This document shows positions 3,270 through 52,370 of a stretch of 64,000 bases of DNA, one piece after another (position 1 is the stretch's first letter; the number at the start of each line of letters is the position of its first letter). The stretch spans positions 5,002-69,001 of the forward strand of contig DATLUA010000054.1 of assembly GCA_035533295.1 (NCBI GenBank). The letters run 5' to 3'. Below the pieces are notes generated by a model that ran no database searches, was not told where the DNA came from, and saw only the letters and a list, made by a program, of their open reading frames with translations. The stretch is from Elusimicrobiota bacterium (GTDB taxonomy: Bacteria; Elusimicrobiota; Elusimicrobia; UBA1565; UBA9628). The position numbers and the translations under genes are program-made.

Positions 3270-3404
3270 AAGAAAAGCAAGCCCCCGCATCAGTGGGGCC
3301 GCAAAGTTGGTCATCCTGGAAGTTGGCGTCCGGTCCCGGATCATATCGATAAGGAAGTGGACCTAAGGCCAACCCATTGTCAAACATGCCGACATAAACT
3401 CACG
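3270..3404 (+). pseudogene. Remnant of an IS66-family transposase N-terminal / zinc-finger region
   Basis: Frame of track ORF 3357, read upstream without a start: KKSKPPHQWGRKVGHPGSWRPVPDHIDKEVDLRPTHCQTCRHKLT. From memory this resembles the IS66 pattern G-x-PGH-x-G-x-x-R-x(3-6)-P-D-x(6-10)-C-x2-C-G-x-x-L. The similarity stops after the Cys pair; the catalytic domain is absent. Confidence 0.35.
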
Positions 3405-3761
3405 CCGCAAATCCGCCTTTCGCGCGTCGTCGTAGACCACGACGGGTATTTTTTACGCGCAAGTCGCGATGAAGGCGTTGACCAGCAATTCTCCTATTTG
3501 AAAATCTCCTTCGGGACGCGCTTCGCGCATAGCGATGCCGTGAGCCATGGTCGGAGAGTATTCCATCCAATAAACTTTCAAGCGGGCGCCGGAAGCTTCT
3601 TCGCCCGACGGCGCCTCGCCGCCCTCGCTTGAGGAATGCAAGCGCGCCATCCCGCCCCAACCCTCATGGCCGTCCTATTTCCTGTCCGCTAAATGGCGCG
3701 GCCTCTGGCGCCGGGAAGGCCTTGAATACGGGTACGACATTGACGTCCTGGCCGAAAAAAT

Positions 3762-5221: not shown

Positions 5222-5911
5222 ATGAAGGTGCTCATCTCCGGCGCCGGCATCGCCGGACCGACGCTGGCCTATTGGCTTTCGCGCCGCGGCTTTGAGCCGA
5301 CGCTTGTCGAGCGCGCCCCGGCGCTGCGCATGGGCCGGCTACGTCATCGATTTCTGGGGCGCGGGCTTCGACGTGGCGGAGCGCATGGGGCTCGTGCCCG
5401 AGTTGAGGCGCCTGGGCTACGCCGCCAAGGAGGTGCGCATCGTCGGCCAGGACGGTCGGAGAGCCAGCGGATTTCCAGTATCCTCCTTCGACAGGCTGAC
5501 CCGCCACCGCTACGTGAGCCCTCCGCGCGGCTGGACAAAAGCCCCGAGCTTTACTTCGACCGGGTCAGCCAGATTCAAATGCCGGAGTGGTCCCGCGGAC
5601 GCGTGGCCTTGGCCGGACAAGGCTCGGCCTTGGCGATGATCTCCGCCTACGCCCTCGCGGGAGAACTCGCGCGCGCCAGGGGCGATTACCGATGGGCGTT
5701 TTCACGCTATCAGGGGCTGCTCTCGCCGTTCATGGCGGACGAACAGAAAGCGGCGATAGGCTTCGCGGGCGTTTTCGCGCCGAAGTCGGCCGTGCGCTTG
5801 TTCTTGCGCGATCAGATCGCCAAAGCCCCGGCGCTTCCGTTCGTTGCCCGCCTGGTTTTTGGGCGCGGGCTTTTGGACGCCATCTCCCTGCCGGAGCACT
5901 CGGAATTCTGA
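5222..5911 (+). pseudogene. FAD-dependent monooxygenase/oxidoreductase, frameshifted and internally deleted
   Basis: N-terminus MKVLISGAGIAGPTLAYWLSRRGFEPTLVERAPALR (GxGxxG Rossmann). The expected continuation GGYVIDFWGAGFDVAERMGLVPEL... is in another frame (track ORF 5292). The C-terminal ELYFDRVSQIQMPEWSRGRVALAG-QGSALAMISAYALAGELA is back in the first frame. About 170 central residues and the GDAA motif are missing. Confidence 0.7.
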
Positions 5912-7533
5912 TGCCCGCCGAGCGGCGCAGGCAAGTTCTTATTTCCCTCGGCCTTGGCGCCGCGACGTTCGCGGCCTTCTGGCCCGTCCTGCACGCGGGC
6001 TTCGTCAATTGGGACGACGCCGCCAACCTGCTGGCCAACTGGCATTACCGCGGCCTGGGCTTGGCCCAGATCCGATGGATGCTGGCCACGTCCTTCGGCG
6101 GCTGCTACCAGCCGCTTTCCTGGCTGAGCTATTCCTTGGACTACGCGCTGTGGGGGCTCAACCCCTTCGGCTATCATCTCACCAACCTCATCTTGCACGC
6201 GGCCAACACCGTTCTGTTTTACTTCGCCGCCCGCATCCTCTTTCGCTGGGGAGCCGGCGAAGCGGACGAGGCCCGCACCTCCGCCGCCGCGGCATTCTCC
6301 GCGCTTTTTTTCGCGCTTCACCCTTTACGCGTGGAGTCGGTGGCCTGGGTGACCGAGCGGCGCGACGTTCTCTCGGGCGTATTTTATCTTGCCGCGCTGC
6401 TGTTTTATCTGCGGCGGCAATTAAAGGCGTCTCTCGCGTGCTTCCTGCTGGCGCTTTGCGCCAAGGCCAGCGGCGTCATGCTGCCCGCCGTATTTCTAAT
6501 TCTGGACGTTTACCCGCTGCGCCGGCTTCCCGAAAATATCCGCGGCTGGTTTTCGCCGCGGTGCCGGCCGGTTTTGCTGGAAAAAATTCCGTTCCTCATC
6601 CTGTCCGCGGTTTTCGGCGCGCTCGCGCTGGCCGGACAGCGCGGCGCCGGGGCGCTCTTGCCTTTGGCGCGGGAAAGCTTCGTGCCGCGAATTGGGCAAG
6701 TTTTTTTCGGCTTGGCGTTTTATCCCCTGAAGACGCTCTTTCCGGCGCACCTCTCCCCCCTTTATGAACTGCCGCCGGGCTTTCATCTTCCCTTCGGGGA
6801 GGTTTTGGCCGGCGTCGCGGCCGTGCTGGCGCTTTCCGCTCTGTTCATCGGGCTGAGGAAAAAATGGCCGGCGGGCTTGGCGGCGTGGGCGTGCTACATC
6901 GTCTTGATCGCGCCGCTCTCGGGAATTTTCCCCGTCGGCCGTCAGTTCGCCGCCGACCGCTACAGCTATCTGTCCTGCATGGCTTGGGCGGCGCTGGCCG
7001 GCGCCGCGGTTTTGGCCGGCTTGAACCGCCTGAGCCGGAGCGGCCGAAAAATTTTGGTGGCGGCGCTGAGCGTCCTTATTCTCGGCCTGGGGCGGCTGAC
7101 TTGGAGCCAAGCCGAAATTTGGCGCGACTCGCAGACGCTTTGGAGCCGGGCCGTCGCCGTGGATCCCGGCTCGGATGTCGCCCGCAACAATCTGGGCTTG
7201 GCCTTGGCCGCGCAAGGCAATGCCGCGCAGGCTTCCATCGAGTATACGGCGGCGCTGGCGATAAGCCCCGACTACGCCAGGGCTCGCAATAATTTGGGCG
7301 ATGCGTTGGCGTCGTTGGGCCAGACCGCGCGGGCCGTCGCCGAGTACCGCAGGGCCCTGGCGATTCAGCCCGATTTCGCCGCGGCACGGGTGAATCTGGG
7401 CAATATCCTCGCGAAGCAGGGAAAAATCGCGCGGGCCGAGGCGCTCTATGAGCAGGCGCTGGCCATTGATCCTGGTTTGGCCGCGGCCCGTCAAAACCTG
7501 CTTTATCTACGGCGCCGGACGCTCGGAAAATAA
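5911..7533 (+). CDS. TMTC/DUF1736-like polytopic membrane glycosyltransferase (GT-C fold) with C-terminal TPR repeats
   Basis: ATG at 5911 overlaps the TGA of the upstream pseudogene. FWPVLHAGFVNWDDAANLL...YQPLSWLSYSLDYALWGLNPFGYHLTNLILHAANT, about 10 TM helices, then 4+ TPRs (ARNNLGLALAAQGNAAQASIEYTAALAISPDYARARNNLG...). The track N-terminal extension (5587-5910) lies in the pseudogene. Confidence 0.75.
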   Translation: MPAERRRQVLISLGLGAATFAAFWPVLHAGFVNWDDAANLLANWHYRGLGLAQIRWMLATSFGGCYQPLSWLSYSLDYALWGLNPFGYHLTNLILHAANTVLFYFAARILFRWGAGEADEARTSAAAAFSALFFALHPLRVESVAWVTERRDVLSGVFYLAALLFYLRRQLKASLACFLLALCAKASGVMLPAVFLILDVYPLRRLPENIRGWFSPRCRPVLLEKIPFLILSAVFGALALAGQRGAGALLPLARESFVPRIGQVFFGLAFYPLKTLFPAHLSPLYELPPGFHLPFGEVLAGVAAVLALSALFIGLRKKWPAGLAAWACYIVLIAPLSGIFPVGRQFAADRYSYLSCMAWAALAGAAVLAGLNRLSRSGRKILVAALSVLILGLGRLTWSQAEIWRDSQTLWSRAVAVDPGSDVARNNLGLALAAQGNAAQASIEYTAALAISPDYARARNNLGDALASLGQTARAVAEYRRALAIQPDFAAARVNLGNILAKQGKIARAEALYEQALAIDPGLAAARQNLLYLRRRTLGK

Positions 7534-7557
7534 GCCGTGTTGGCCCCGCCCGTCGGT

Positions 7558-7586
7558 TTGACAGGCTTTCCCGCAGTTCGTATAAT
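7558..7586 (+). promoter_or_regulatory. Consensus sigma70 promoter TTGACA-17 nt-TATAAT for rpsO-pnp
   Basis: TTGACA 7558-7563, exact 17-nt spacer, TATAAT 7581-7586. The rpsO ATG at 7596 is 9 nt after the -10. Confidence 0.65.
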
Positions 7587-7595
7587 TTGGGCAAT

Positions 7596-7862
7596 ATGAT
7601 AACAAAAGAAAATAAAAGCGGAATCGTAAAGAAGTACGCGGTCAACGCGAAGGACGTGGGAAGCTCCCAGGTCCAAATTGCGCTGTTGACCGAACGCATC
7701 AAAAGCCTCTCCGGACACCTTAAAGGAAACAAGAAGGATTACTCCTCCCAGCGCGGCCTGCTCAAGCTCGTCGGACAGCGCCGCCGCCTGCTGGGCTACG
7801 TTAAACGCTCGGATTTCGCCGGCTACAACCGCCTGATCCAGCAGCTGGATCTAAGGAAATAG
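7596..7862 (+). CDS. rpsO: 30S ribosomal protein S15
   Basis: [71 protein letters not shown], a classic S15. The track start (TTG 7587) abuts the -10 box, so ATG 7596 is preferred. Confidence 0.95.
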
Positions 7863-7864
7863 CC

Positions 7865-10069
7865 ATGGACAACATTCAAAAAATCAGCCTGCAGGAAACT
7901 GTGGGCGGCAAGACCTTTTGCCTGCAGACCGGCACCATCGCCAAGCAGGCCGGCGGCTCCGTCACCGTGCACCTGGGCGAGACCGTTGTTCTCTCCGCCG
8001 CCACGGCGTCGTGGACGCCCAAGGACGTGGATTTCGTGCCCTTGACCTCCGACTACCGCGAGCGGACCTACGCGGCTGGGCGCATCCCGGGCGGATTCTT
8101 CAAGCGTGAGAACCGGCCGCGAGAGAAGGAAATTCTCTCCTCGCGGCTTATCGACCGGCCCATCCGGCCTTTGTTCCCCTCGGGCTGGAACTTCGAGACC
8201 ATGGTGCAGAGCATCGTGATTTCCACGGACTCCGAGAACGACGCGGACGTGGTGGCCATCAACGGCGCCTCGACCGCCCTGATTCTTTCCGACGTCCCGT
8301 GGAACGGGCCCGTGGGTGCTGTGCGCATCGTGCGCCGCAACGGCGCCTTCGTGCTTTTCCCCACCTTCGAAGAGCGGGAAGACGCTGAGCTGGAGCTCGT
8401 CGTGGCCGGCAAGAAGGGCGCGCTCCTGATGGTGGAAGGCAGCGCTAAAGAGGTCGGCGAGGACGTTTTCGTCCAGGCTTTGGAGGTCGCCTCCGAGGCC
8501 ATCGATCGGATTTGCGACCTGCAGCTGCGCCTGCTTAAGGAAAGCCAGGCGGCCGGACGCAAGGTGGCCAAGCGGGAGCCCTCCAAGTTCGAGCATCCCG
8601 CGGCGGTCGAAGCCTACGTCGCGCCCAAGGCCAAGGAAGCCATCAACGCGGCCCTGCACTCCAAGCTGGACAAAGCCGGCCTGGACGAGCGCGTCGACGA
8701 GGCCAAGGACAAGCTTAAGAAGGAAGTCGAGGAGCTCGCCAAGACCAAACCCGAGTTCACCGACGGCGTCAAGCACGTCTCGGCCATCATCGAGGACGTG
8801 GTCTACACCGAGAGCCGGCGCGTGAGCTTGGAAGAGCACGTGCGTCCGGACGGCCGGCGCTTCGATGAGATTCGCCCCATCACCATCCAGACGCCGGTGT
8901 TCAAGCGCCTGCACGGCTCGGTGCTCTTCACCCGCGGTCAGACCCAGGCCTTCGTGAGCGCGACCTTGGGCAGCCCGGGCGACATGCAGGTCATGGACGT
9001 CCTGGAGGGCGAGTACAAAGAACGCTTCATGATGCACTACAACTTCCCGGCCTTCTCGGTCGGCGAGGTGCGTCCGGAGCGCGGCCCCGGACGTCGGGAA
9101 ATCGGCCACGGCGCCTTGGCGCGCCGCTCGCTTGAGCCCCTGCTGCCGCCGGAAGAGGAGTTTCCTTATACCATCCGCCTGGTCTCGGACATCCTTGAGT
9201 CCAACGGCTCGTCCTCGATGGCGTCGGTCTGCGGCGGGAGCTTGGCGCTCTTCGACGCGGGCGTCCCCATGAAGGCGGCCTGCGCGGGCATCGCGATGGG
9301 CTTGGTCCTGGAGGGCGGCAAGTACGCCATCCTGACCGACATCGCCGGCGTGGAAGACCACAACGGCGACATGGACTTCAAGGTGGCCGGCACGACCCAA
9401 GGCATCACCGGCTTCCAGATGGACATGAAAATCGAGGGACTCTCCATCAAGATCATGACCGAAGCCCTGGAACAGGCCAAGAAGGCGCGGCTTTTCATTC
9501 TTGATAAGATGAACGCGGCCTTGGAGAAACCCCGCCCGGAGCTCTCTGAGTACGCGCCGCGCTTGATGCGCATCCAAATTCCGCAGGACAAGATCGGCGC
9601 CCTTATCGGCCCCGGCGGCAAGAACATCCGCCGCTTGACCGAAACCTACGGCGTCGAGGTGGAAGTCGAGGAGGACGGCTCGGTGTTCATCGCCGGCACG
9701 GACTCCGAGGCCTGCGAGCAGGCCAAGGCCGAAGTCGAGGCCTTGAGCCAGGAAGCCGAGATTGGCAAGATATACAAGGGGCGCGTGGTCTCCATCAAGG
9801 AGTTCGGCGCGTTCGTGGAGATTTTCCCCGGCCGCGAAGGGCTTCTGCACATTTCCCAAATCGACAAGACCCGCGTCGCGCGCGTCGAGGACGTCTTGAA
9901 GGAAGGCGACCAAGTCGAGGTCAAGGTCCTGGAAGTCGACGAAGGCGGCAAAATCCGCCTCTCGCGAAAAGCGGTGCTCTTTCCCGGCTCGGAGCTCGCC
10001 GACGCGGGACGGCCTCCGCGGCGTTCGGGCCCCAGCAACGGCGACAACGGACGCCGCCACCGCCGCTAA
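7865..10069 (+). CDS. pnp: Polyribonucleotide nucleotidyltransferase (PNPase)
   Basis: 734 aa. Two RNase PH domains (...[30 protein letters not shown]...), a KH domain ([20 protein letters not shown]) and an S1 domain ([20 protein letters not shown]). Conserved position after rpsO. Confidence 0.97.
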
Positions 10070-44515: not shown

Positions 44516-45148
44516 ATGGAATTTCACGTCGGATTGAAGGAAATCATCGTCTCCGGGGGCGTGACCCTCGTATTCCTCATTTTTCTTTCCATTTATTCGC
44601 TGGCGCTCATATGGGAGCGCTGGCGCTACTTCGACACGGCCATCAAAGGGACCCAGGAGTTCCTGGAGAAAATCCGCAAGTTCATCGCCGCGCGGGATTT
44701 CTCGGAGGCCATGTCGGCGTGCCGCCGCCACCAGGGCCTGGCCCAGGGCGTGGTGATGGCGAGCCTGGCGGGCGCCAGCGCCCGGGATGAGCGCAAGCGC
44801 GGCGCCGAGCGGGCCAACGAACGGGCCGCGGCCCTCTTGCAAAAGCGCCTTTCGACCTTGGGCACCATTGCCAGCGTGGCGCCGTTCATCGGGCTCTTCG
44901 GCACGGTCGTGGGCGTCATGCGCGCTTTCCGGGACCTGGCCTCGGTCGCAGGCGCGGGGCCGGGCGTGGTCGCCATCGGCATCTCGGAAGCCCTGGTCTG
45001 CACAGCGACCGGGCTATTCGTGGCCATTCCGGCCGTCGCCGCCTACAACTATTTCAACTCGCGGACGGAGCGCTTCGCCGAGGAGATGGACTGGATTTCG
45101 GATGAAATCCTAGACAGCCTCTCGGACAAACCGCACAAGCTCTCGTGA
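44516..45148 (+). CDS. MotA/TolQ/ExbB proton-channel family protein
   Basis: ...LGTIASVAPFIGLFGTVVGVMRAF...IGISEALVCTATGLFVAIPAVAAYNYF is canonical TolQ/ExbB. I cannot tell tolQ from exbB. Confidence 0.9.
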   Translation: MEFHVGLKEIIVSGGVTLVFLIFLSIYSLALIWERWRYFDTAIKGTQEFLEKIRKFIAARDFSEAMSACRRHQGLAQGVVMASLAGASARDERKRGAERANERAAALLQKRLSTLGTIASVAPFIGLFGTVVGVMRAFRDLASVAGAGPGVVAIGISEALVCTATGLFVAIPAVAAYNYFNSRTERFAEEMDWISDEILDSLSDKPHKLS

Positions 45149-45555
45149 ACGCCGCGCGCAAGCCCGGCCGGCGGATCATCGCGGAGATGAACCTCATTCC
45201 GCTCATCGACGTGTCCCTCATCCTGGTCATCATCTTCATGGTCTTGACGCCCATGATGGTCCAGTCCGAACTGAGCGTCAAGTTGCCCAAGGCGTCCTCG
45301 GGGACTCCGGCGCCGGCCGCGACCACGATTCACGTGGAAATCGACCGCAACGGCGCGCTGATCATCGAGGGCCGGCCCGTCAACTGGGACGATTTGACGC
45401 GGGAGCTTTCCCTGCGCCTGGGCCGCTCGCGCAGCAAGACGGTCCTGGTTGAAGCGGACAAGAGCGTCGCCGTCGAGCGCGTCGTGGCCGTTCTGGACGC
45501 GGCCAAGCGCCTGGGCGTGGGCAAGATGGGCGTCGGCGTCGAGGCGCGGCCCTAG
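45145..45555 (+). CDS. ExbD/TolR biopolymer transport protein
   Basis: IAEMNLIPLIDVSLILVIIFMVLTPMM...VEADKSVAVERVVAVLDAAKRLG. 4-nt overlap with the upstream gene. Confidence 0.9.
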   Translation: MNAARKPGRRIIAEMNLIPLIDVSLILVIIFMVLTPMMVQSELSVKLPKASSGTPAPAATTIHVEIDRNGALIIEGRPVNWDDLTRELSLRLGRSRSKTVLVEADKSVAVERVVAVLDAAKRLGVGKMGVGVEARP

Positions 45556-45581
45556 ATGCCGGCAGACTTTCCTCGGACGAC

Positions 45582-48500
45582 GTGACCATCCACGATATCC
45601 TCGAAGAGTTCCGGCGGGAGGCGTCATCGAATCGGGAGCTCGGGGATAAGTTCGAGCGCCTCGTCGCCGGCTACCTAAAAACCGATCCGCTCTACCAAGC
45701 CAAGTATAGCGACATCTGGCTTTGGACCGAGTGGCCGGAGCGGAGCAAACGCCCCGATACCGGCATTGATATTGTCGCCAAGGAACGCGAGACCGGCGGA
45801 TACTGCGCCATTCAGTGCAAGTTTTTTGACCCCGCGCATAATCTCCAAAAAAGCGACATTGATTCATTCTTCACATCCTCAGGCAAGGAGCCGTTTACCA
45901 GCCGCCTGATCGTTTCAACCACGGATAATTGGAGCGCTAACGCCGAAGATGCTCTCAATAATCAACGGATTCCCGTCAGCCGCTTGCGCGTCCAGGATTT
46001 AGCCGAAAGTCCTGTTGATTGGAGCCGGTTCAGCCTCAATCGCCCCCAGTCTTTTAAGCTCAAAGAGCGGAAGAAAATCCTGCCGCACCAAGAGTCGGCT
46101 ATTAAGGATATCATCGCGGGATTTAAAACCGCCGACCGCGGCAAGCTCATCATGGCTTGCGGCACGGGCAAGACCTTCACCGCGCTTAAACTCGCCGAGC
46201 GGATGGTTCCGCTCGGCGGCCACGTTCTCTACTTGATGCCCTCGATTTCTCTGGTTTCTCAAACCTTGCGCGAATGGACGGCTGAAGCCGACAAACCGCT
46301 CCGCAGCTATATCGTGTGCTCGGATATCAAAGTCGGCAAGAAATTCGAGAGCGAGGATATCAGCGTCCACGATCTGGCTTTCCCGGCGACCACGAATGCC
46401 GCTAAACTGGCGAATCAGGTAAAAGCTTTCGCCGACAAAAAGCGCCTGGCCGTCATTTTCTCGACTTATCAATCCATCAAGGTTGTTTCAGAAGCCCAAG
46501 CCAAGGGAGCGCCCGCATTCGATCTCATCATCTGCGATGAGGCCCACCGCACCACCGGCGTCACGCTTGAAGGAGAAGACGAGTCCCATTTTGTCCGCGT
46601 TCACAGCCAAGATTTCATCAAGGCTAAAAAGCGCCTCTACATGACCGCCACCCCGCGCATCTATGGCGATGGGGCCAAGACCCAAGCGAAGGAAAAAGAC
46701 GCTCTTCTCTGCTCGATGGATGACGCGGAGCTCTACGGCCCCGAATTTCACCGCTTGGGATTTTCGGAGTCCGTAAGGAATGATTTGCTCTCTGACTACA
46801 AGGTCATGGTCCTCGCGGTGGATGAGAAATTCGTCAGCAGGACATTTCAAAGCCAATTAGCAGATAAGAACAATGAAATCAACCTTGAGGACGCGGTCAA
46901 AATCACGGGCTGTTGGAACGGCCTTTCCAAGCGCATGGCCAAGGACCCCACGGGCTACATCGCGGATGATATTACGGTGCCGATGCGCCGCGCGGTCGCG
47001 TTTTCGCGCTCTATTAGGGATTCAAAACGAATCAAGGATTTATTCGCCGCCGTCATTGAGCAATATCGAAAGATGGAGACAAGCGATGACGGCATGTTGT
47101 CGTGCGAGGTAGAGCACGTTGATGGCACCTTCAACGCTCTCAAGCGCAATGAGAAGCTCGATTGGCTAAAGGCCGATCTCGATCCGGAGAATAACGTTTG
47201 CCGCATTCTTTCCAATGCACGCTGCCTGTCCGAAGGCGTGGACGTGCCCGCGCTGGACGCGGTTTTATTCTTGAATCCGCGCAATTCCGTGGTCGACGTG
47301 GTGCAGTCCGTCGGGCGCGTGATGCGCAAGGCTCCCGGCAAAAAGTACGGCTACATTATCTTGCCGGTCGGCATACCGGCGGACGTGCCGCCCGAGGAAG
47401 CTCTTAAGGACAATCAGAGATACAAGGTGGTCTGGCAGGTTCTGCAAGCTCTGCGGGCCCATGATGATCGCTTTAGCGCGACCATCAATAAAATCGACCT
47501 CAATAAAACGCGGCCCGACCAAATACAAATCATCGGCATCGGCGGCGGAGCCAAAGGAGACGGTTCTGGAACCAGCGATGTGAAACCCGCCCAACTTGTC
47601 TTTAATTTCCCACAAATCGAGGAGTGGCGCAACGCGATTTACGCCAAAATCGTTTTAAAGTGCGGTGAGCGCCAATACTGGGAGAAATGGGCGCAGGACG
47701 TGGCGCAAATCGCGGAGCGGCACGTCACGCGCATCAAGGCTCTTTTGGATGGACCTAAAAATAAGAAACATCGCGAGGCTTTCGCCGGGTTCCTCAAGGG
47801 TTTACAGAAAAACCTCAACCCAAGCATTGACGAGTCCGCCGCCGTTGAAATGCTCTCCCAGCATCTGATCACCAGGCCCGTGTTCGACGCCTTATTTGAA
47901 GGTTACGAGTTTACCAAGCACAACCCGGTCTCTCTTTCCATGCAGAAGATGCTGGATTTGCTGGAGGATCAGGCGCTGGGAAAAGAAACCGCGGGCTTGG
48001 AAAAATTCTACGCCAGCGTCAAGGAACGCGCCAGCGGCGTTGACACTCAGGAAGGCAGGCAGCGCATCGTTATCGAGCTCTACGAAAAATTTTTCCAAGC
48101 GGCATTCCCGCGCATGAAGGAACGTCTTGGCATCGTTTACACGCCGGTTGAAGTTGTAGATTTCATCATCCATAGCGTGAACGACGCCCTGCGCCAGGAG
48201 TTCAACGTAAGTTTAAGCGATCAAGACGTTCATATCCTCGACCCCTTCACCGGCACGGGAACATTCATGGTCCGCCTGCTTCAAAGCGGACTAATCTCTT
48301 CCAAAGATTTGACGCGAAAATACGAGAGCGAGCTTCATGCCAATGAAATCGTCCTCCTGGCCTACTATATCGCGGCCATCAACATCGAGGAAGCCTACCA
48401 TAGCATCACACAGGAGAAATATCAGTCTTTTGAAGGCATCGTCCTGACCGATACCTTCCAACTGACAGAGGCCGGCGGGCCGCAAACGGAAACGACGTTC

Positions 48501-50342
48501 CAAGAGAATAATAAACGCGTTTCACGCCAGAACAAGACCGACATCCGTGTCATCATCGGCAATCCGCCGTATTCAGCCGGGCAGACCAGCGAGAACGACG
48601 CGAACAAGAATTTTAAATACCCGACCCTGGATACTCGAATTGAAACCACCTACGCGGCGAGTTCTTCGGCGGGCCTCAAAAAAACTCTTTACGATTCTTA
48701 TATTCGCTCAATCCGCTGGGCCAGCGACCGCATCAAGGACACGGGCATTATTTGCTTCGTAAGCAACGGTTCTTTTATCGACGGCAACGCCGCTGACGGC
48801 CTCCGCAAATGCTTGGCGGATGAGTTTTCCTCCATCTACTGCTTTAATTTACGTGGCAATCAGAGGACATCAGGCGAGATTTCTCGCATGGAAGGCGGCA
48901 AAATTTTTGGGTCAGGCAGTAGAGCAAGTATTGCCATCACCTTGCTTATCAAGAACCCCAAGAAGGATAAGTGCCGACTTTACTATCACGACATCGGCGA
49001 TTACTTGAGCCGCGAGGAAAAGCTGAAAATAATCCGGGACTTTCGAAGCTTCAAACAAGTTTCCTGGAAAGCCATCACCCCCAATAAAAGCCATGATTGG
49101 ATCAACCAGCGCGATCCGGCTTTCGAAAGATTTATCCCCATGGGTGATAAAGCGAAAGAAGAAAAGCAAATACCTCTTTGGTCGCTTTATTCGCTGGGGG
49201 TGGTCACCAACCGCGATGCCTGGGCATACAGCTTTTCCAAGAAGAATTTGACCGCGAATATGCGCCGGATGATTGATTTCTATAATCAGCAGGCTACCGG
49301 TTATAAGAAAGCGATCTCCAAGGGCAAAGCCGTTAAAGTTGAAGATTTCATTGATAATGATTCCAAAAAAATCAGTTGGACACGAAGCCTAAAAAACGAT
49401 CTTTCTAAAGGCAAGCAATACGAGTTTAACGCAGACTCGATAGTTCAAGGGATGTATCGCCCCTATTGCAAACAATGGATTTATTTCAATAGACGTTTTA
49501 ATGAAATGGTTTATCTGATGCCCAGCATTTTTCCAAATGAGTCGCTTCAGAATTTAGTTATCACAGCCAGTGGTATTGGCGCCAGCAAGGGCTTCTCTGC
49601 GCTGATGACGGATGCCGTTCCCAACCTGGACTTGCATGATAAGTGCCAATGCTTTCCGCTGTTCTCATACGAAAAATCCGAGGATTTGGGCGAACTCTTC
49701 GCGGCGCATGCAAAATCCAATGGATACTTCAAGAAGGACGCTATCAACGATGATATCCTGACGCTATTCGGGAAAACTTACGACGGCAAGATCATCAAGG
49801 AAGACATTTTCTACTACGTCTACGGCATCCTGCATTCGCCGGAATATAAACGGCGTTTTGAGTCTGACCTTAAGAAAATGCTGCCGCGCATTCCGCTGGC
49901 AAAGGATTTCTGGGCCTTCAGCAAAGCCGGCCGCGCTTTGGCCCAGTGGCACCTGAATTATGAAACCGTCGAGCCCTATCCGCTCAAAGAATCCGATGAC
50001 GCGCTCCGCCTTGAGCCGAAGAGACACTACCGGGTCGAAAAAATGCGCTTCGCCAAGCAAGGCAAGGACGAAGACAAAACCGCCATCATCTACAACAGCC
50101 ATCTGACCCTTGAGGGCATTCCGCTTGAAGCCTGCGAGTATGTCGTCAACGGCAAGCCCGCGCTTGAATGGATTATGGAACGCTACCAAGTCACCACGGA
50201 TAAGGACAGCGGCATCGTCAATGACCCAAATGACTGGTCGGACGATCCGCGATACATCTTAGATTTGGTCAAGCGCATCGTCCGCGTAAGCCTGGAAACG
50301 ATGAAGATTGTTAAGAGCCTGCCGGTGATTTCGGAACTTTGA
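45582..50342 (+). CDS. Type ISP restriction-modification enzyme (single polypeptide: Mrr-like nuclease, SF2 helicase-like ATPase, N6-adenine gamma-MTase, TRD)
   Basis: 1586 aa. N-terminal PD-(D/E)xK (PDTGIDIVAKERETGGYCAIQCKFF). Walker A ACGTGKTF (46161-46175 = GTGKT), DEAH (46536-46547), motif VI QSVGRVMRK. MTase motif I DPFTGTGTF (48240-48266) and motif IV NPPY (48561-48572). Long C-terminal TRD. Same order and size as LlaGI/LlaBIII-type enzymes (about 1570-1580 aa as I recall). Confidence 0.9.
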   Translation: MTIHDILEEFRREASSNRELGDKFERLVAGYLKTDPLYQAKYSDIWLWTEWPERSKRPDTGIDIVAKERETGGYCAIQCKFFDPAHNLQKSDIDSFFTSSGKEPFTSRLIVSTTDNWSANAEDALNNQRIPVSRLRVQDLAESPVDWSRFSLNRPQSFKLKERKKILPHQESAIKDIIAGFKTADRGKLIMACGTGKTFTALKLAERMVPLGGHVLYLMPSISLVSQTLREWTAEADKPLRSYIVCSDIKVGKKFESEDISVHDLAFPATTNAAKLANQVKAFADKKRLAVIFSTYQSIKVVSEAQAKGAPAFDLIICDEAHRTTGVTLEGEDESHFVRVHSQDFIKAKKRLYMTATPRIYGDGAKTQAKEKDALLCSMDDAELYGPEFHRLGFSESVRNDLLSDYKVMVLAVDEKFVSRTFQSQLADKNNEINLEDAVKITGCWNGLSKRMAKDPTGYIADDITVPMRRAVAFSRSIRDSKRIKDLFAAVIEQYRKMETSDDGMLSCEVEHVDGTFNALKRNEKLDWLKADLDPENNVCRILSNARCLSEGVDVPALDAVLFLNPRNSVVDVVQSVGRVMRKAPGKKYGYIILPVGIPADVPPEEALKDNQRYKVVWQVLQALRAHDDRFSATINKIDLNKTRPDQIQIIGIGGGAKGDGSGTSDVKPAQLVFNFPQIEEWRNAIYAKIVLKCGERQYWEKWAQDVAQIAERHVTRIKALLDGPKNKKHREAFAGFLKGLQKNLNPSIDESAAVEMLSQHLITRPVFDALFEGYEFTKHNPVSLSMQKMLDLLEDQALGKETAGLEKFYASVKERASGVDTQEGRQRIVIELYEKFFQAAFPRMKERLGIVYTPVEVVDFIIHSVNDALRQEFNVSLSDQDVHILDPFTGTGTFMVRLLQSGLISSKDLTRKYESELHANEIVLLAYYIAAINIEEAYHSITQEKYQSFEGIVLTDTFQLTEAGGPQTETTFQENNKRVSRQNKTDIRVIIGNPPYSAGQTSENDANKNFKYPTLDTRIETTYAASSSAGLKKTLYDSYIRSIRWASDRIKDTGIICFVSNGSFIDGNAADGLRKCLADEFSSIYCFNLRGNQRTSGEISRMEGGKIFGSGSRASIAITLLIKNPKKDKCRLYYHDIGDYLSREEKLKIIRDFRSFKQVSWKAITPNKSHDWINQRDPAFERFIPMGDKAKEEKQIPLWSLYSLGVVTNRDAWAYSFSKKNLTANMRRMIDFYNQQATGYKKAISKGKAVKVEDFIDNDSKKISWTRSLKNDLSKGKQYEFNADSIVQGMYRPYCKQWIYFNRRFNEMVYLMPSIFPNESLQNLVITASGIGASKGFSALMTDAVPNLDLHDKCQCFPLFSYEKSEDLGELFAAHAKSNGYFKKDAINDDILTLFGKTYDGKIIKEDIFYYVYGILHSPEYKRRFESDLKKMLPRIPLAKDFWAFSKAGRALAQWHLNYETVEPYPLKESDDALRLEPKRHYRVEKMRFAKQGKDEDKTAIIYNSHLTLEGIPLEACEYVVNGKPALEWIMERYQVTTDKDSGIVNDPNDWSDDPRYILDLVKRIVRVSLETMKIVKSLPVISEL

Positions 50343-50344
50343 TT

Positions 50345-51154
50345 ATGAACGGCTATATCGGATATTTCGATATTTTAGGCTACAGAAGTTTTCTTGAAAA
50401 CAACCCTCAAGAAGGCGTTCAAAAGCGCGTTCTTGGACTAATTGCGGATGTGAAAAAATCGCTGCCCGAAGCGATGAAAAAATATCGCTCCAAACTTTCT
50501 GAAGCCGCCGAGGAAATTATTGGCAAGACGAACTGGCTTGTTTTTTCGGACACGATTGTTTTTGCCATAGAAGAGCCTGACAACAAGAAGGATGAATTGC
50601 TCTATTTCCCGATCGCGATAATCACGGCTGGAGATTTGATGACGCGCATGTTTAATGACGGCCTGCCTCTGCGCGGCGCGCTTCATCATGGGCAATATAA
50701 TTTTCTTGAAAACAGCATGGCTGGAACAGGAGTGGTCCAAAGCATTAACGCGGGAAAAGATTTGGATTTGTCCGCCTGCGTTTTAACGGAGGAATTGGCG
50801 AAAAGAGCAGGAGAGCTAATTGAAGCAACCCAGCCTGATGAAGCCGACCGTAATTTCTGGGATCAAATATTATGCGACTACAGCGTGCCGATCTCCGGAG
50901 ATAAATGGGCTAAGCGGAAATGCCTGATGTGGTTTGACCTGAATCATATCGAAAACCTGAGAGGGGACGGAATCATGCAAGCGCTCAGCCGCCTCGACTA
51001 CCGTCAATATGTTCTGCTTTCTTTTTGGGCGCACAACAAAGGCATCTCCGATACTAAAACCGTGCGGAAGCTTGATGAAACCGAAAGATTCATTCGCTAT
51101 TGCGTTTTTAGGCGCGATGAAAATCAGCGAGCAAATCACCGAAGTAAGCCTTGA
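50345..51154 (+). CDS. Uncharacterised protein; N-terminal ~165 aa resemble a class III nucleotidyl-cyclase homology domain (palm fold), C-terminal ~100 aa unknown
   Basis: ATG 2 nt after the ISP stop. MNGYIGYFDILGYRSF (compare F-x-D-I-x-G-F-T), NWLVFSDTIVFAI (compare G-D-x-h-h-h-h-F), GLPLRGALHHGQYNF (compare h-R-h-G-h-H-x-G), GTGVVQSINAGKDLDLSACVLTEEL (compare G-x-x-V-N-x-A-x-R...hhhs). The spacing of these blocks fits a CHD. The Arg of the N-x-x-x-R pair is not obvious. Confidence 0.6.
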   Translation: MNGYIGYFDILGYRSFLENNPQEGVQKRVLGLIADVKKSLPEAMKKYRSKLSEAAEEIIGKTNWLVFSDTIVFAIEEPDNKKDELLYFPIAIITAGDLMTRMFNDGLPLRGALHHGQYNFLENSMAGTGVVQSINAGKDLDLSACVLTEELAKRAGELIEATQPDEADRNFWDQILCDYSVPISGDKWAKRKCLMWFDLNHIENLRGDGIMQALSRLDYRQYVLLSFWAHNKGISDTKTVRKLDETERFIRYCVFRRDENQRANHRSKP

Positions 51155-51197
51155 GACCATGAAAATCGTCAAGAGCGCGAAAAAGCAAAACTCATGA
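51117..51197 (+). pseudogene. Remnant of the 3' end of a second, diverged Type ISP gene
   Basis: MKISEQITEVSLETMKIVKSAKKQNS* versus the intact gene end ...LVKRIVRVSLETMKIVKSLPVISEL*. Nucleotides 51144-51176 versus 50286-50318 are 27/33 identical, and all six differences fall in third codon positions. It overlaps the last 38 nt of the cyclase-like ORF in another frame. Confidence 0.5.
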
Positions 51198-51385
51198 GCA
51201 CCGCGGTCAAATCGGTCAACGACATGCACAAAAAGGTCAACGTCGAATGCGAACGGATTCTAGAATCCCTGCGCGATTACTGGAAGACCGAAGCGAAAGT
51301 CCATCATGGAATCACGGCCTCTTTGGGGAACGAGTCCACGAAGCCGCTTCCGGCAATCGAATTCGAGAAGGATGGCGGACGATGA
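51194..51385 (+). CDS. Small hypothetical protein (63 aa)
   Basis: ATG overlaps the remnant TGA (ATGA at 51194-51197). Fairly high third-position GC. MSTAVKSVNDMHKKVNVECERILESLRDYWKTEAKVHHG... No family recognised. Confidence 0.4.
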   Translation: MSTAVKSVNDMHKKVNVECERILESLRDYWKTEAKVHHGITASLGNESTKPLPAIEFEKDGGR

Positions 51386-51422
51386 TGAAGGTCGGCTCAT
51401 TGCTGGAAAATAAAAACGAAAA

Positions 51423-51440
51423 GCCCCGGTTTCCCGGGGC
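51423..51440. terminator. GC hairpin GCCCCGG-tttc-CCGGGGC; the U-tract is only on the minus-strand side
   Basis: Stem 51423-51429 / 51434-51440. The plus strand continues ttgggc (weak). The minus strand continues ttttcgtttttatttt (strong intrinsic-terminator tail). Lies 38 nt after the 63-aa ORF stop. Confidence 0.5.
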
Positions 51441-51504
51441 TTGGGCAACTCGCATCCGTCCGCCGGAGGCTAGTGTGTCAGCAGACGGCATTTTTGTCAA
51501 TAAG

Positions 51505-51640
51505 CCCTATCAACCCCCTATCAACCCTCGGGCTAAGGCTTGCCCCAGGGCTAGCCACCCCCTAGCCACCTGGCTATCCAGACCTAGCCACCCCCTAGCC
51601 ACCCCCCGTATACCTAGGCCTGCCTATCTGCCTATCTGCC
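51505..51640. repeat. Cluster of short direct repeats rich in CTAG/CTAT
   Basis: CCCTATCAACC x2 in tandem (51505-51526). CTAGCCACCCCCTAGCCACC x2 (51551-51570 and 51584-51603), i.e. 4 copies of CTAGCCACC plus degenerate copies (ggctatcca, ggctaagg). GCCTATCT x2.4 in tandem (51622-51640). Confidence 0.85.
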
Positions 51641-51665: not shown

Positions 51666-52370
51666 TTGAACAAAACGATAGTCCCCGCCGACTTGAAGCC
51701 TTATCTTCGCTACTCCGTCTTTCTGCACGCGGCCATCGGCTTCGCCATGGCTCTGGCCTTCATCAAGAGCGCGCCGCGGATGAGCGGCGTCTACACCATC
51801 GACGTCGTGGGCCCGGCGCCCTCCATCGCGGAAAACCAAAGCGCCGCGGCGGCCAAAAAGTCCGGCCCAGCCGCCGTTGCGAAGGCCGCCGCGGGCCACA
51901 TGGAGGAGCAAAGAAAAACGCGGGAGTTCGGCGCGCGGCGCCGCCCGCAGGAGGCCCTGCCGCCGCCCAGCCTTCTTGAGGGCTATCAAAACGTATCCGC
52001 GTCCAAGCCCGCGCCGGCGGCCGCGGCTCCGGCCGAGGAATCCGCTAAGCCCGCGGGCTCTGCCGCGCCCGGCTCGGTGAGCATGTCGCTCTCGAATTTC
52101 CCATACCCGTGGTACATCAGCCAAATCCGCATGGCGCTTTGGCGGCAGTGGTCGGAGCGCATGCCGGGCGGCGGCGGCAGCAGCGTCGTGGTCTTTTCCA
52201 TACTTCCCGATGGGAACGTCACGGATTTGCGCACCGAGGAAAGCTCGGGAGACGCGGCTTTCGATTTGACGGCCCTGGGCGCGGTCAAGGACGCGGCGCC
52301 CTTTCCGCCGCTGCCCGCGGGCTTCAAGAAGCCTTTCTTGACGATTCATCTGACCTTGACGTCCTCCTAG
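51666..52370 (+). CDS. TonB/TolA-like energy-transducer protein
   Basis: N-terminal TM (YSVFLHAAIGFAMALAFI), an Ala/Pro-rich linker, and a C-terminal FPYPWYISQIRMALWRQW...VVVFSILPDGNVTDLRTEESSGDAAFDLTALGAVKDAAPFPPLP (TonB_C-like). TTG start. Confidence 0.75.
   Translation: MNKTIVPADLKPYLRYSVFLHAAIGFAMALAFIKSAPRMSGVYTIDVVGPAPSIAENQSAAAAKKSGPAAVAKAAAGHMEEQRKTREFGARRRPQEALPPPSLLEGYQNVSASKPAPAAAAPAEESAKPAGSAAPGSVSMSLSNFPYPWYISQIRMALWRQWSERMPGGGGSSVVVFSILPDGNVTDLRTEESSGDAAFDLTALGAVKDAAPFPPLPAGFKKPFLTIHLTLTSS

Follow-up and report, generated by a model that had tools for sequence, protein, structure and literature searches.

What is a gene for a predicted cyclase-fold enzyme doing directly behind the gene of a single-polypeptide restriction enzyme? 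The question is raised by a stretch of 64,000 nucleotides from an Elusimicrobiota bacterium (assembly GCA_035533295.1, contig DATLUA010000054.1, positions 5,002 to 69,001; hereafter the window), in which a Type ISP restriction-modification (RM) gene is followed at once by an open reading frame (ORF) of 269 amino acids (aa) at 50345-51154 of the forward strand. A sequence-only reading of this DNA had recognized a cyclase-homology domain in the 269-aa product and had proposed that the two genes form a specific, so far undescribed module. The analysis presented here agrees with the first of these proposals and departs from the second: with about even confidence, we take the 269-aa protein to be an independent cyclase-fold nucleotidyltransferase, one cargo among many interchangeable passengers that occupy a variable slot at the 3' end of ISP genes, where it would provide a second layer of defence resembling abortive infection (Abi).

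The predicted structure speaks most directly to the nature of the protein. An AlphaFold2 model built on an alignment of 92 family sequences has a pLDDT of 93.2 and a pTM of 0.91, and the top 50 matches found with it by Foldseek in the PDB (E of 1e-5 to 9e-4) are all catalytic domains of class III adenylyl or guanylyl cyclases, including CyaC, soluble guanylate cyclase, Rv1900c and Ma1120. These matches cover about 200-220 aligned columns, with TM-scores normalised to the target of 0.45-0.67 for isolated domains, and they bear out the cyclase-homology domain that had been read from the letters alone. The cyclase-homology, or palm, domain, with its beta-alpha-beta-beta-alpha-beta core, extends over about aa 1-195 and is followed at about aa 199-266 by a helical extension with a conserved SFWAHxK...K...T....R pattern; no sensor or receiver domain is fused to the protein. 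Searches by sequence returned no such relationship: the 269-aa protein does not match the cyclase family PF00211 in Pfam, even at E<=1, and a profile search against PDB sequences gave no match at E<=10. Two other assignments were considered and rejected, namely a palm of the mCpol, GGDEF or Cas10 type, given the hairpin motif FSDT and the lack of any Pfam mCpol or GGDEF match at E<=1, and a HEPN domain in the C-terminal extension, for which a 24-residue match to HEPN_Swt1 reached an E of 0.024 and 15 bits (cut-off 27.5), whereas the conserved residues of the extension (H230, K232, K242, T246 and R251) include no Rx4-6H motif. On the strength of the model, the protein is predicted to be a stand-alone and divergent nucleotidyltransferase of the class III cyclase fold.

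Half of the canonical active site appears to be present. A profile alignment (hhalign) with three PDB cyclases, weak in itself (E 0.068) and used only as a check of register, places D9 on the Asp of FSDIVGFT, D69 on the Asp of VGDAIM and R110 on the Arg of RFRCGIHQG in CyaC. D9 (codon GAT, 50369-50371, forward strand, motif FDILGY) is thus aligned with the first metal-binding Asp, that of strand beta1, D69 (codon GAC, 50549-50551, forward strand, motif FSDT) with the second, that of the beta2-beta3 hairpin, and R110 (codon at 50672-50674, forward strand, motif GLPLRGxxxxG) with the phosphate-binding Arg of strand beta4; the latter occupies the RxGxHxG position, ahead of G111 and of a G116 that is invariant in the 92-sequence alignment. 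Both Asp residues, which had been assigned to the same codons beforehand, are invariant in 92 of 92 sequences. The Asn, Arg and Lys that complete the site in class III cyclases are supplied across the dimer interface. Such enzymes, and PycC of the Pycsar system with them, form head-to-tail dimers whose active sites lie at the interface (PMC11224242). G127 and A133, spaced like their counterparts in the cyclase motif GxxVNxAxR, set the register of helix alpha4, where two of these three residues are expected; this register relies on motif spacing and on the secondary structure of the model, and not on a superposition of structures residue by residue. At the position of the transition-state Asn (131), 96% of the family have V or I and none has N, and the transition-state Arg position (135), R or K in 53% of the family, is occupied by N in the window protein, in keeping with the earlier remark that a transition-state Arg was not obvious. 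The base-specifying Lys would stand at position 65, four residues ahead of the second Asp, where 84% of the sequences, the window protein among them, have L. The window protein and its closest relative further deviate from the family consensus in alpha4 (C124S, K/R128T, E132Q, A133S, Y134I, R/K135N), changes that may mean an altered specificity or regulation in this ISP-linked clade; in spite of them, every invariant residue of the family is kept. Read from the alignment, the window protein would retain that half of the site which serves metal and triphosphate, and lack the other. We argue that this metal and nucleoside triphosphate (NTP) site is active because both Asp residues and the Arg are strictly conserved at an overall identity of 25-30%, and also in a sister family described below.

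The gene itself belongs to a large family that has gone without a name. The 269-aa protein has no acceptable match in Pfam, NCBIfam, PADLOC or PHROGs, in line with the suggestion of something undescribed, and its homologs are called nothing but 'hypothetical protein' in their source records. An exhaustive HMMER search (E<=1e-3) returned at least 623 representatives after clustering at 50% identity, and a word-indexed search 100 family proteins at the same threshold; nearly all are stand-alone proteins of 250-280 aa. In the 92-sequence alignment, G3, D9, G12, Y13, F67, D69, G106 and G116 are invariant, R110 is conserved at 97%, and H230, K232, K242, T246 and R251, all in the C-terminal extension, are conserved at 92% or more. 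The distribution is patchy, with 25-35% identity between phyla. Compared with a 65%-identical relative, the window gene has a dN/dS of 0.17 (dS 1.48), as against 0.075 (dS 1.77) for the ISP gene in front of it. Judged by these substitution rates, the cyclase-fold gene is under purifying selection, and together with the size of the family this speaks for the ORF being a real gene. Relatives were sought in collections of mobile elements as well: tblastn with the window protein and a sister-family member gave no match among PLSDB plasmids or INPHARED phages, a pattern scan of IMG/VR yielded no confirmed relative, and a fold search of BFVD returned only generic cyclase-domain proteins. In the literature on Type ISP enzymes and cyclases, on SLOG/LDcluster4 proteins, on class III cyclases in defence islands and on accessory genes of ISP systems, no prior description was found.

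The gene upstream, at 45582-50342 of the forward strand, is by its domain content a Type ISP RM enzyme. Its 1586-aa product has the full architecture, in order Mrr_cat_2, ResIII/Helicase_C, ISP_coupler, N6_Mtase and Type_ISP_C, all above the Pfam thresholds (E of 8.5e-51 for Mrr_cat_2, 1e-25 for ResIII, 8.4e-52 for ISP_coupler, 1.3e-9 for N6_Mtase and 2.1e-116 for Type_ISP_C), which would correspond to an Mrr-type nuclease, an SF2 translocase, a coupler, a gamma-type N6-adenine methyltransferase and an ISP target-recognition domain; the PADLOC model REase_MTase_IIG, that of a Type IIG enzyme, scores it at 2343 bits. The TGA stop of this gene (50340-50342) lies 2 nt before the ATG of the cyclase-fold ORF at 50345. 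An ORF listing starts the latter farther upstream, at a TTG at 50339, and 50345 is the likely start because homologs begin at MNGYIGF. The absence of a ribosome-binding site that had been noted here is borne out, in that no AGGAGG-type Shine-Dalgarno sequence was found 5' of the ORF and only a weak GGA lies at about -13. We infer that one transcript carries both genes and that translation of the cyclase-fold gene is coupled to that of the ISP gene.

Is such tight coupling a sign of partnership? A metagenome scan for relatives of the ISP C-terminal domain provided 80 loci (L090-L169) with 42-74% identity, and none of the 80 holds a relative of the cyclase-fold protein, whether sought by hidden Markov model (HMM) or by tblastn. 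About 30 of these ISP genes nevertheless have a same-strand ORF that starts within -60 to +60 nt of their stop, often overlapping it, and these abutting ORFs are nearly all unrelated to one another and of kinds typical of defence islands. Those with an annotation encode an AbiJ_NTD3+Abi_C protein (with a 4-nt overlap), an AAA_15/AAA_21 ATPase of the OLD type, a PIF1 helicase, an MTES_1575/DUF559 nuclease of the restriction endonuclease kind, AlbA_2 (Schlafen) proteins with Fic-like_C or HATPase_c_4, GMT-wHTH, UvrD-TPR-WYL, NA37, DUF5677 and HTH-Peptidase_M78 proteins, and an IS240 transposase, which in one locus (L153) truncates the ISP gene. The view that ISP genes are self-contained is therefore incomplete, given the ORFs that abut the 3' ends of about 30 of the 80.

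The junctions carry traces of how these genes may have arrived. A repeat search of the window found two direct copies of 33 nt on the forward strand, spaced 858 nt apart and 82% (27/33) identical, of which the first (50286-50318) is the ISP 3' end that encodes VSLETMKIVKS, a motif that most of the 80 ISP homologs share at their C-terminus, and the second (51144-51176) is a remnant of another ISP 3' end. All six differences between the copies are synonymous in the ISP frame, so that the second copy still encodes VSLETMKIVKS, an indication that the remnant was formerly the end of a functional ISP allele. The whole remnant (51144-51197, forward strand) reads VSLETMKIVKSAKKQNS*, in a frame different from that of the cyclase-fold ORF, and its TGA overlaps the ATG of a 63-aa ORF (51194-51385, forward strand) as ATGA. 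A comparable and much longer duplication was found in one of the 80 loci, L100, where 213 nt of ISP 3' end (3274-3486 and 5481-5693, 95% identical) surround a 2.2-kb insert made up of an OLD-type ATPase gene and a 199-aa ORF. On the simplest reading of these sequences, the conserved ISP 3' end could serve as a homology patch for circular cassettes that contain a copy of the patch and insert there through a single, Campbell-type crossover; integration of this kind would duplicate the patch and keep the stop/start junction for each cargo gene. Possible short repeats were also seen in two further loci, L146 and L147.

The closest homolog, P0002 (65% identity), allows the history of the pair to be followed. 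It is found in a contig of a metagenome-assembled genome (MAG), locus L001, also downstream of an ISP gene and elsewhere in the chromosome, with an amine oxidase gene on one side and feoAB on the other. By blastn, window positions 45585-50315 are 76% identical to the ISP gene of L001 and positions 50295-51113 are 71% identical to its homolog; since the synonymous divergence of the two genes is similar (1.77 and 1.48), the ISP and cyclase-fold genes have travelled together since the two lineages split. In L001, three genes (5947-7952) now separate the ISP gene from the homolog, which is still intact. They encode a 211-aa protein with two predicted N-terminal hydrophobic helices that would span the membrane, a DprA/SLOG-type protein (DNA_processg_A, with a weak LDcluster4 match) and a phosphoribosyltransferase (PRTase)-like protein (sub-threshold Pribosyltran/PRTase_2), and this cassette may itself constitute a nucleotide-centred conflict system. 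Directly in front of the homolog, an 18-codon remnant of an ISP 3' end (about 7951-8003) reads ETMNIIKALPRILELLQ*, and its TGA overlaps the homolog's ATG, again as ATGA.

In the window, the ISP gene, the cyclase-fold gene and the 63-aa ORF make up an island of about 5.9 kb (45556-51500, the right boundary being approximate), with a GC content of 0.43-0.58 over 45500-51500 compared with 0.63-0.68 on either side. It lies between genes for ExbB (PF01618) and ExbD (PF02472), at 44516-45555, and a tonB-like gene (TonB_C) at 51666-52370. From composition and position, the island is horizontally acquired and splits an exbB-exbD-tonB cluster. A scan of the window for a tRNA gene as integration site found none. 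The GTG start of the ISP gene lies 26 nt behind the exbD stop, which leaves the left end of the island without obvious promoter space of its own. At the other side, within 51501-51603 and thus between the island and tonB, CTAGCCACCCCCTAGCCAC occurs in two perfect copies at 51551 and 51584 and in a degenerate third at about 51501, and nowhere else in the 64 kb (0 copies expected by chance); these repeats may be an island end or a recombination site. The product of the 63-aa ORF is hydrophilic; Pfam, PADLOC and NCBIfam gave no match to it, the fetched loci contain no relative, and the statement that no effector of the transmembrane (TM) or TIR type is encoded here stands, as the island holds only these three genes. 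A GC-rich hairpin of 9 bp with a T-run on the minus strand (51421-51442) lies at the right edge of the island and looks like a terminator by a consensus scan only, the number of sites from the promoter and terminator scan of the window not exceeding that in shuffled controls. It would fit a minus-strand transcript, and no convincing minus-strand gene lies upstream of it.

The relatives of the gene show what company it keeps elsewhere. About 70 homolog loci were gathered from one-genome-per-species contigs and from look-ups of exact proteins, and clustering of the four neighbours on either side in about 80 loci (BLAST, phmmer) revealed no conserved partner beyond a lineage-level synteny in Anaerolineaceae. 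An ISP gene stands near the homolog in only two of the about 70 loci, the window and L001. Combined with the count of 0 in 80 from the ISP side and with the absence of any partner conserved across phyla, this leaves a specific ISP-plus-cyclase module, as first proposed, unsupported. Neighbours related to defence or mobility do occur in the close family, namely ISP, BrnT/BrnA, a KAP NTPase, IS21 IstB, a TPR-GreAB-C-PIN protein and MNT-HepT together with ParE-Phd, and most close-family members have no RM neighbour. In 20 Anaerolineaceae MAGs (L027-L063), a gene of about 135 aa without a Pfam match directly precedes the homolog, often with a 4-nt overlap (for instance L037, 9537-9983); it could be a lineage-specific partner or inhibitor. 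In five other loci (L067, L172, L021, L007 and L171), homologs adjoin genes for dihydroorotase, dihydroorotate dehydrogenase, a purine nucleoside phosphorylase (PNP)/UDP phosphorylase, NUDIX and nucleoside diphosphate kinase (NDK) proteins, and carA.

A clearer link to defence comes from the sister family, found in gut and rumen Firmicutes. Its members are 350-380 aa long, share with the close family about 25% identity and the same core (YFDILGY, FSDN, RGG..KG, G..IEA), both metal-binding Asp residues and the beta4 Arg included, and have a different and longer C-terminal half. The sister family comprises at least 369 clusters at 90% identity (E<=1e-5) and has no Pfam domain; like the close family, it is missing from NCBIfam, PADLOC and PHROGs too and has no solved relative that sequence searches reveal, although members reach a sub-threshold PF00211 match (E about 0.002, 18 bits against a cut-off of 21.9). 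Its structural model finds its matches among class III cyclases, one of them the uridylate cyclase 8jsz of Pycsar, from Anabaena. Six of about 15 distinct contexts adjoin RM or bacteriophage exclusion (BREX) genes. With X for the sister-family gene, these arrangements include hsdM-X-hsdS (L089, 7857-12093), hsdS-KAP-hsdR-X-AlbA_2 (L086, 3591-12467), MmeI-X, of the MmeI-type IIG class (L083, 64-3264), BrxL-X, of a BREX locus (L084, 8238-11281), helicase/REase-X-Dcm-GHKL (L072, 6413-14817) and X-N6 methyltransferase...AAA_5 (L088). Elsewhere, HipA-X is seen in three loci (L073, L080 and L081), an NNH7 STAND NTPase gene lies two genes upstream of X in L175, L176 has Abi_2-X, and in L174 rpsI-X stands at the edge of an integrase-bearing element. 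The cyclase-fold core is thus linked to RM or BREX loci of several types, a link that is real, if unquantified. Of the RM linkage first suggested for the window protein, the ISP-specific form is unsupported and a weaker one persists, in which both families recur beside Type I, Type IIG, ISP, BREX and toxin-antitoxin genes.

Several known systems invite comparison. By fold, the nearest in defence is Pycsar (PycC with PycTM or PycTIR), which likewise builds on a class III cyclase fold and one of whose cyclases the sister-family model matches. However, the window protein lacks the canonical catalytic residues, does not match the PADLOC PycC model at E<=1 (10 relatives gave nothing relevant at E<=0.1), and is accompanied by no gene for a TM or TIR effector that binds cyclic nucleoside monophosphates, neither in the island nor as a conserved feature of the about 70 homolog loci. 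Class III cyclases at large (PF00211) share with the window protein the fold, the order and spacing of the motifs, both metal-binding Asp residues and the beta4 Arg, and differ from it by the V/I, N and L that take the places of their Asn, Arg and Lys and by its additional conserved helical extension of ~70 aa. Small stand-alone palm-domain synthases without upstream sensor domains also have a precedent in defence, since the minimal Cas10-type palm of mCpol/Panoptes makes cyclic nucleotides constitutively (PMC12657230); unlike it, the window protein has no adjacent effector with two TM segments, and its structural neighbours are class III cyclases and not Cas10 or GGDEF proteins.

For function, the nearest precedent is PrrC, the anticodon nuclease encoded inside the EcoprrI Type Ic hsd locus, which the RM enzyme keeps silent until an anti-restriction peptide of a phage sets it free (PMC1484252, PMC3458546). 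The likeness is that of an unrelated accessory gene in an RM operon or abutting it, suggestive of a layer that guards or backs up restriction, and the sister family displays this layout in L089 (hsdM-X-hsdS) and L086 (hsdR-X). It is an analogy and implies no membership: PrrC combines an ABC-ATPase with an RNase, entirely different in fold and chemistry from a cyclase palm, and prrC is always RM-linked, in contrast to most members of the cyclase-fold family. Since both families recur beside RM, BREX and toxin-antitoxin genes, a PrrC-like accessory role in defence is plausible for the window protein. The slot behind ISP genes, for its part, resembles the cargo hotspots of defence islands in having a fixed anchor gene, highly variable cargo enriched in defence genes and horizontal exchange, but here the anchor, the ISP gene, belongs to defence as well, its conserved 3' coding end contains the junction, and duplicated gene-end remnants and stop/start overlaps mark the site. 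Searches of the literature found no description of such a hotspot for ISP genes.

How might an independent enzyme in this slot work? The cyclase-fold protein would bind an NTP with two metal ions and perform a nucleotidyl transfer, either a cyclisation or another reaction that releases pyrophosphate, the latter being considered because other residues stand in the places of the canonical Asn, Arg and Lys. The active site could be completed by basic residues from the conserved helical extension at the C-terminus (H230, K232, K242 and R251). The protein would then form an independent, Abi-like second layer, comparable to other genes found next to RM systems, and would not regulate the motor or nuclease of the ISP enzyme. 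Any cyclase signalling by the window protein would have to work without the canonical Asn, Arg and Lys. A wider version of this proposal, which we regard as possible although rather doubtful, is that the FDILGY/FSD(T/N) proteins of both families make up a so far overlooked superfamily of accessory enzymes in defence, which would be carried along by RM, BREX and toxin-antitoxin loci and act without a separate effector gene, and that the ISP 3' end is a recombination anchor at which such cargo is collected and shuffled. Such proteins might for example guard the RM enzyme as PrrC does, their activation leading to a non-canonical nucleotide product or to a drain on the NTP pool, and each active site would be completed by the protein's own variable C-terminal module.

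Several observations weigh against a passenger with a defence role. Many homologs stand beside housekeeping genes (rpsI, ribE, pyrC, pyrD, PNP, a racemase, a GDP-mannose dehydratase, an OmpA-like protein), the conserved Anaerolineaceae synteny resembles that of a stable resident and is unlike fast-turnover defence cargo, the departures of the window protein from the alpha4 consensus could alter or weaken catalysis, and the collections of phages, plasmids and viral contigs gave no relatives, such that mobility is deduced only from the island and the patchy distribution. A housekeeping or regulatory nucleotide-signalling enzyme outside defence, which would have come to lie behind the ISP gene by chance as the island was assembled, is the alternative. 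This is a serious rival, given the synteny across more than 20 MAGs with its clade-specific upstream gene and the many metabolic neighbours, among them pyrC, pyrD, PNP and ribE, with NUDIX/NDK genes nearby; the missing phage and plasmid relatives suit it too. We consider it unlikely all the same, as the window gene sits inside a low-GC acquired island and has co-diverged with an RM gene, as two sister families recur across phyla beside RM, BREX, toxin-antitoxin, STAND and Abi genes, and as the distribution is patchy, with 25-35% identity between phyla. The opposite view, that the protein is a dedicated partner which makes or senses a nucleotide gating the ISP translocase-nuclease, or specifically backing it up, in a two-component module, draws on the 2-nt stop-start spacing, on a junction of the same kind kept in L001 as an ATGA overlap with an ISP 3' remnant, and on the similar synonymous divergence by which the two genes have travelled together. 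It is nonetheless improbable: the gene is missing from all 80 related ISP loci and has an ISP gene near it in only two of about 70 homolog loci, a three-gene cassette splits the pair in L001 with the homolog still intact, and tight coupling to the ISP stop is common to many unrelated cargo genes.

Two further explanations concern the activity of the protein. It might be a pseudo-cyclase, catalytically inactive, that keeps the fold and the nucleotide pocket solely as an NTP-binding sensor and ligand-responsive regulator; the family-wide V/I in place of the transition-state Asn, the N and L that replace Arg and Lys in the window protein and its deviating alpha4 would all fit. Dead enzymes, however, usually lose the metal-binding Asp residues and the beta4 Arg, which here are invariant or 97% conserved among 92 sequences and kept in the sister family at about 25% identity, and the extra conserved basic cluster in the C-terminal extension could replace the missing residues, so that we find a dead enzyme quite improbable. 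Still harder to sustain is an addiction or toxin-like module, in which the protein would consume NTP, and so either stabilise the island or kill infected cells, and would depend on a cognate inhibitor. The gene is often found among toxin-antitoxin pairs (BrnTA, MNT-HepT, ParE-Phd, HipA, MazE), and the small upstream gene that overlaps the homolog by 4 nt in Anaerolineaceae would be a candidate inhibitor, but no inhibitor or antitoxin candidate is conserved beyond that one family-level clade, and the 63-aa ORF, which is the only small neighbour in the window, is joined to an ISP remnant of its own and lacks homologs among the fetched loci. Such a module is very improbable.

Returning to the independent passenger in the slot at the ISP 3' end, what would be new, as far as sequences and models can tell, is the protein family, its sister and the cargo slot itself, and what is known is the class III cyclase fold and the defence-island setting. 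If the protein is active, the class III cyclase fold would gain a new branch, one that works with neither the canonical transition-state residues nor a partner effector, and nucleotide-based immunity would prove broader in its chemistry and logic than is known at present. If it has no role in defence, it would be an ordinary passenger gene of an island. A large unannotated protein superfamily that recurs by restriction, BREX and toxin-antitoxin genes is directly testable, and so is the variable slot at Type ISP 3' ends, which is marked by duplicated gene ends and could be mined systematically for new defence genes.

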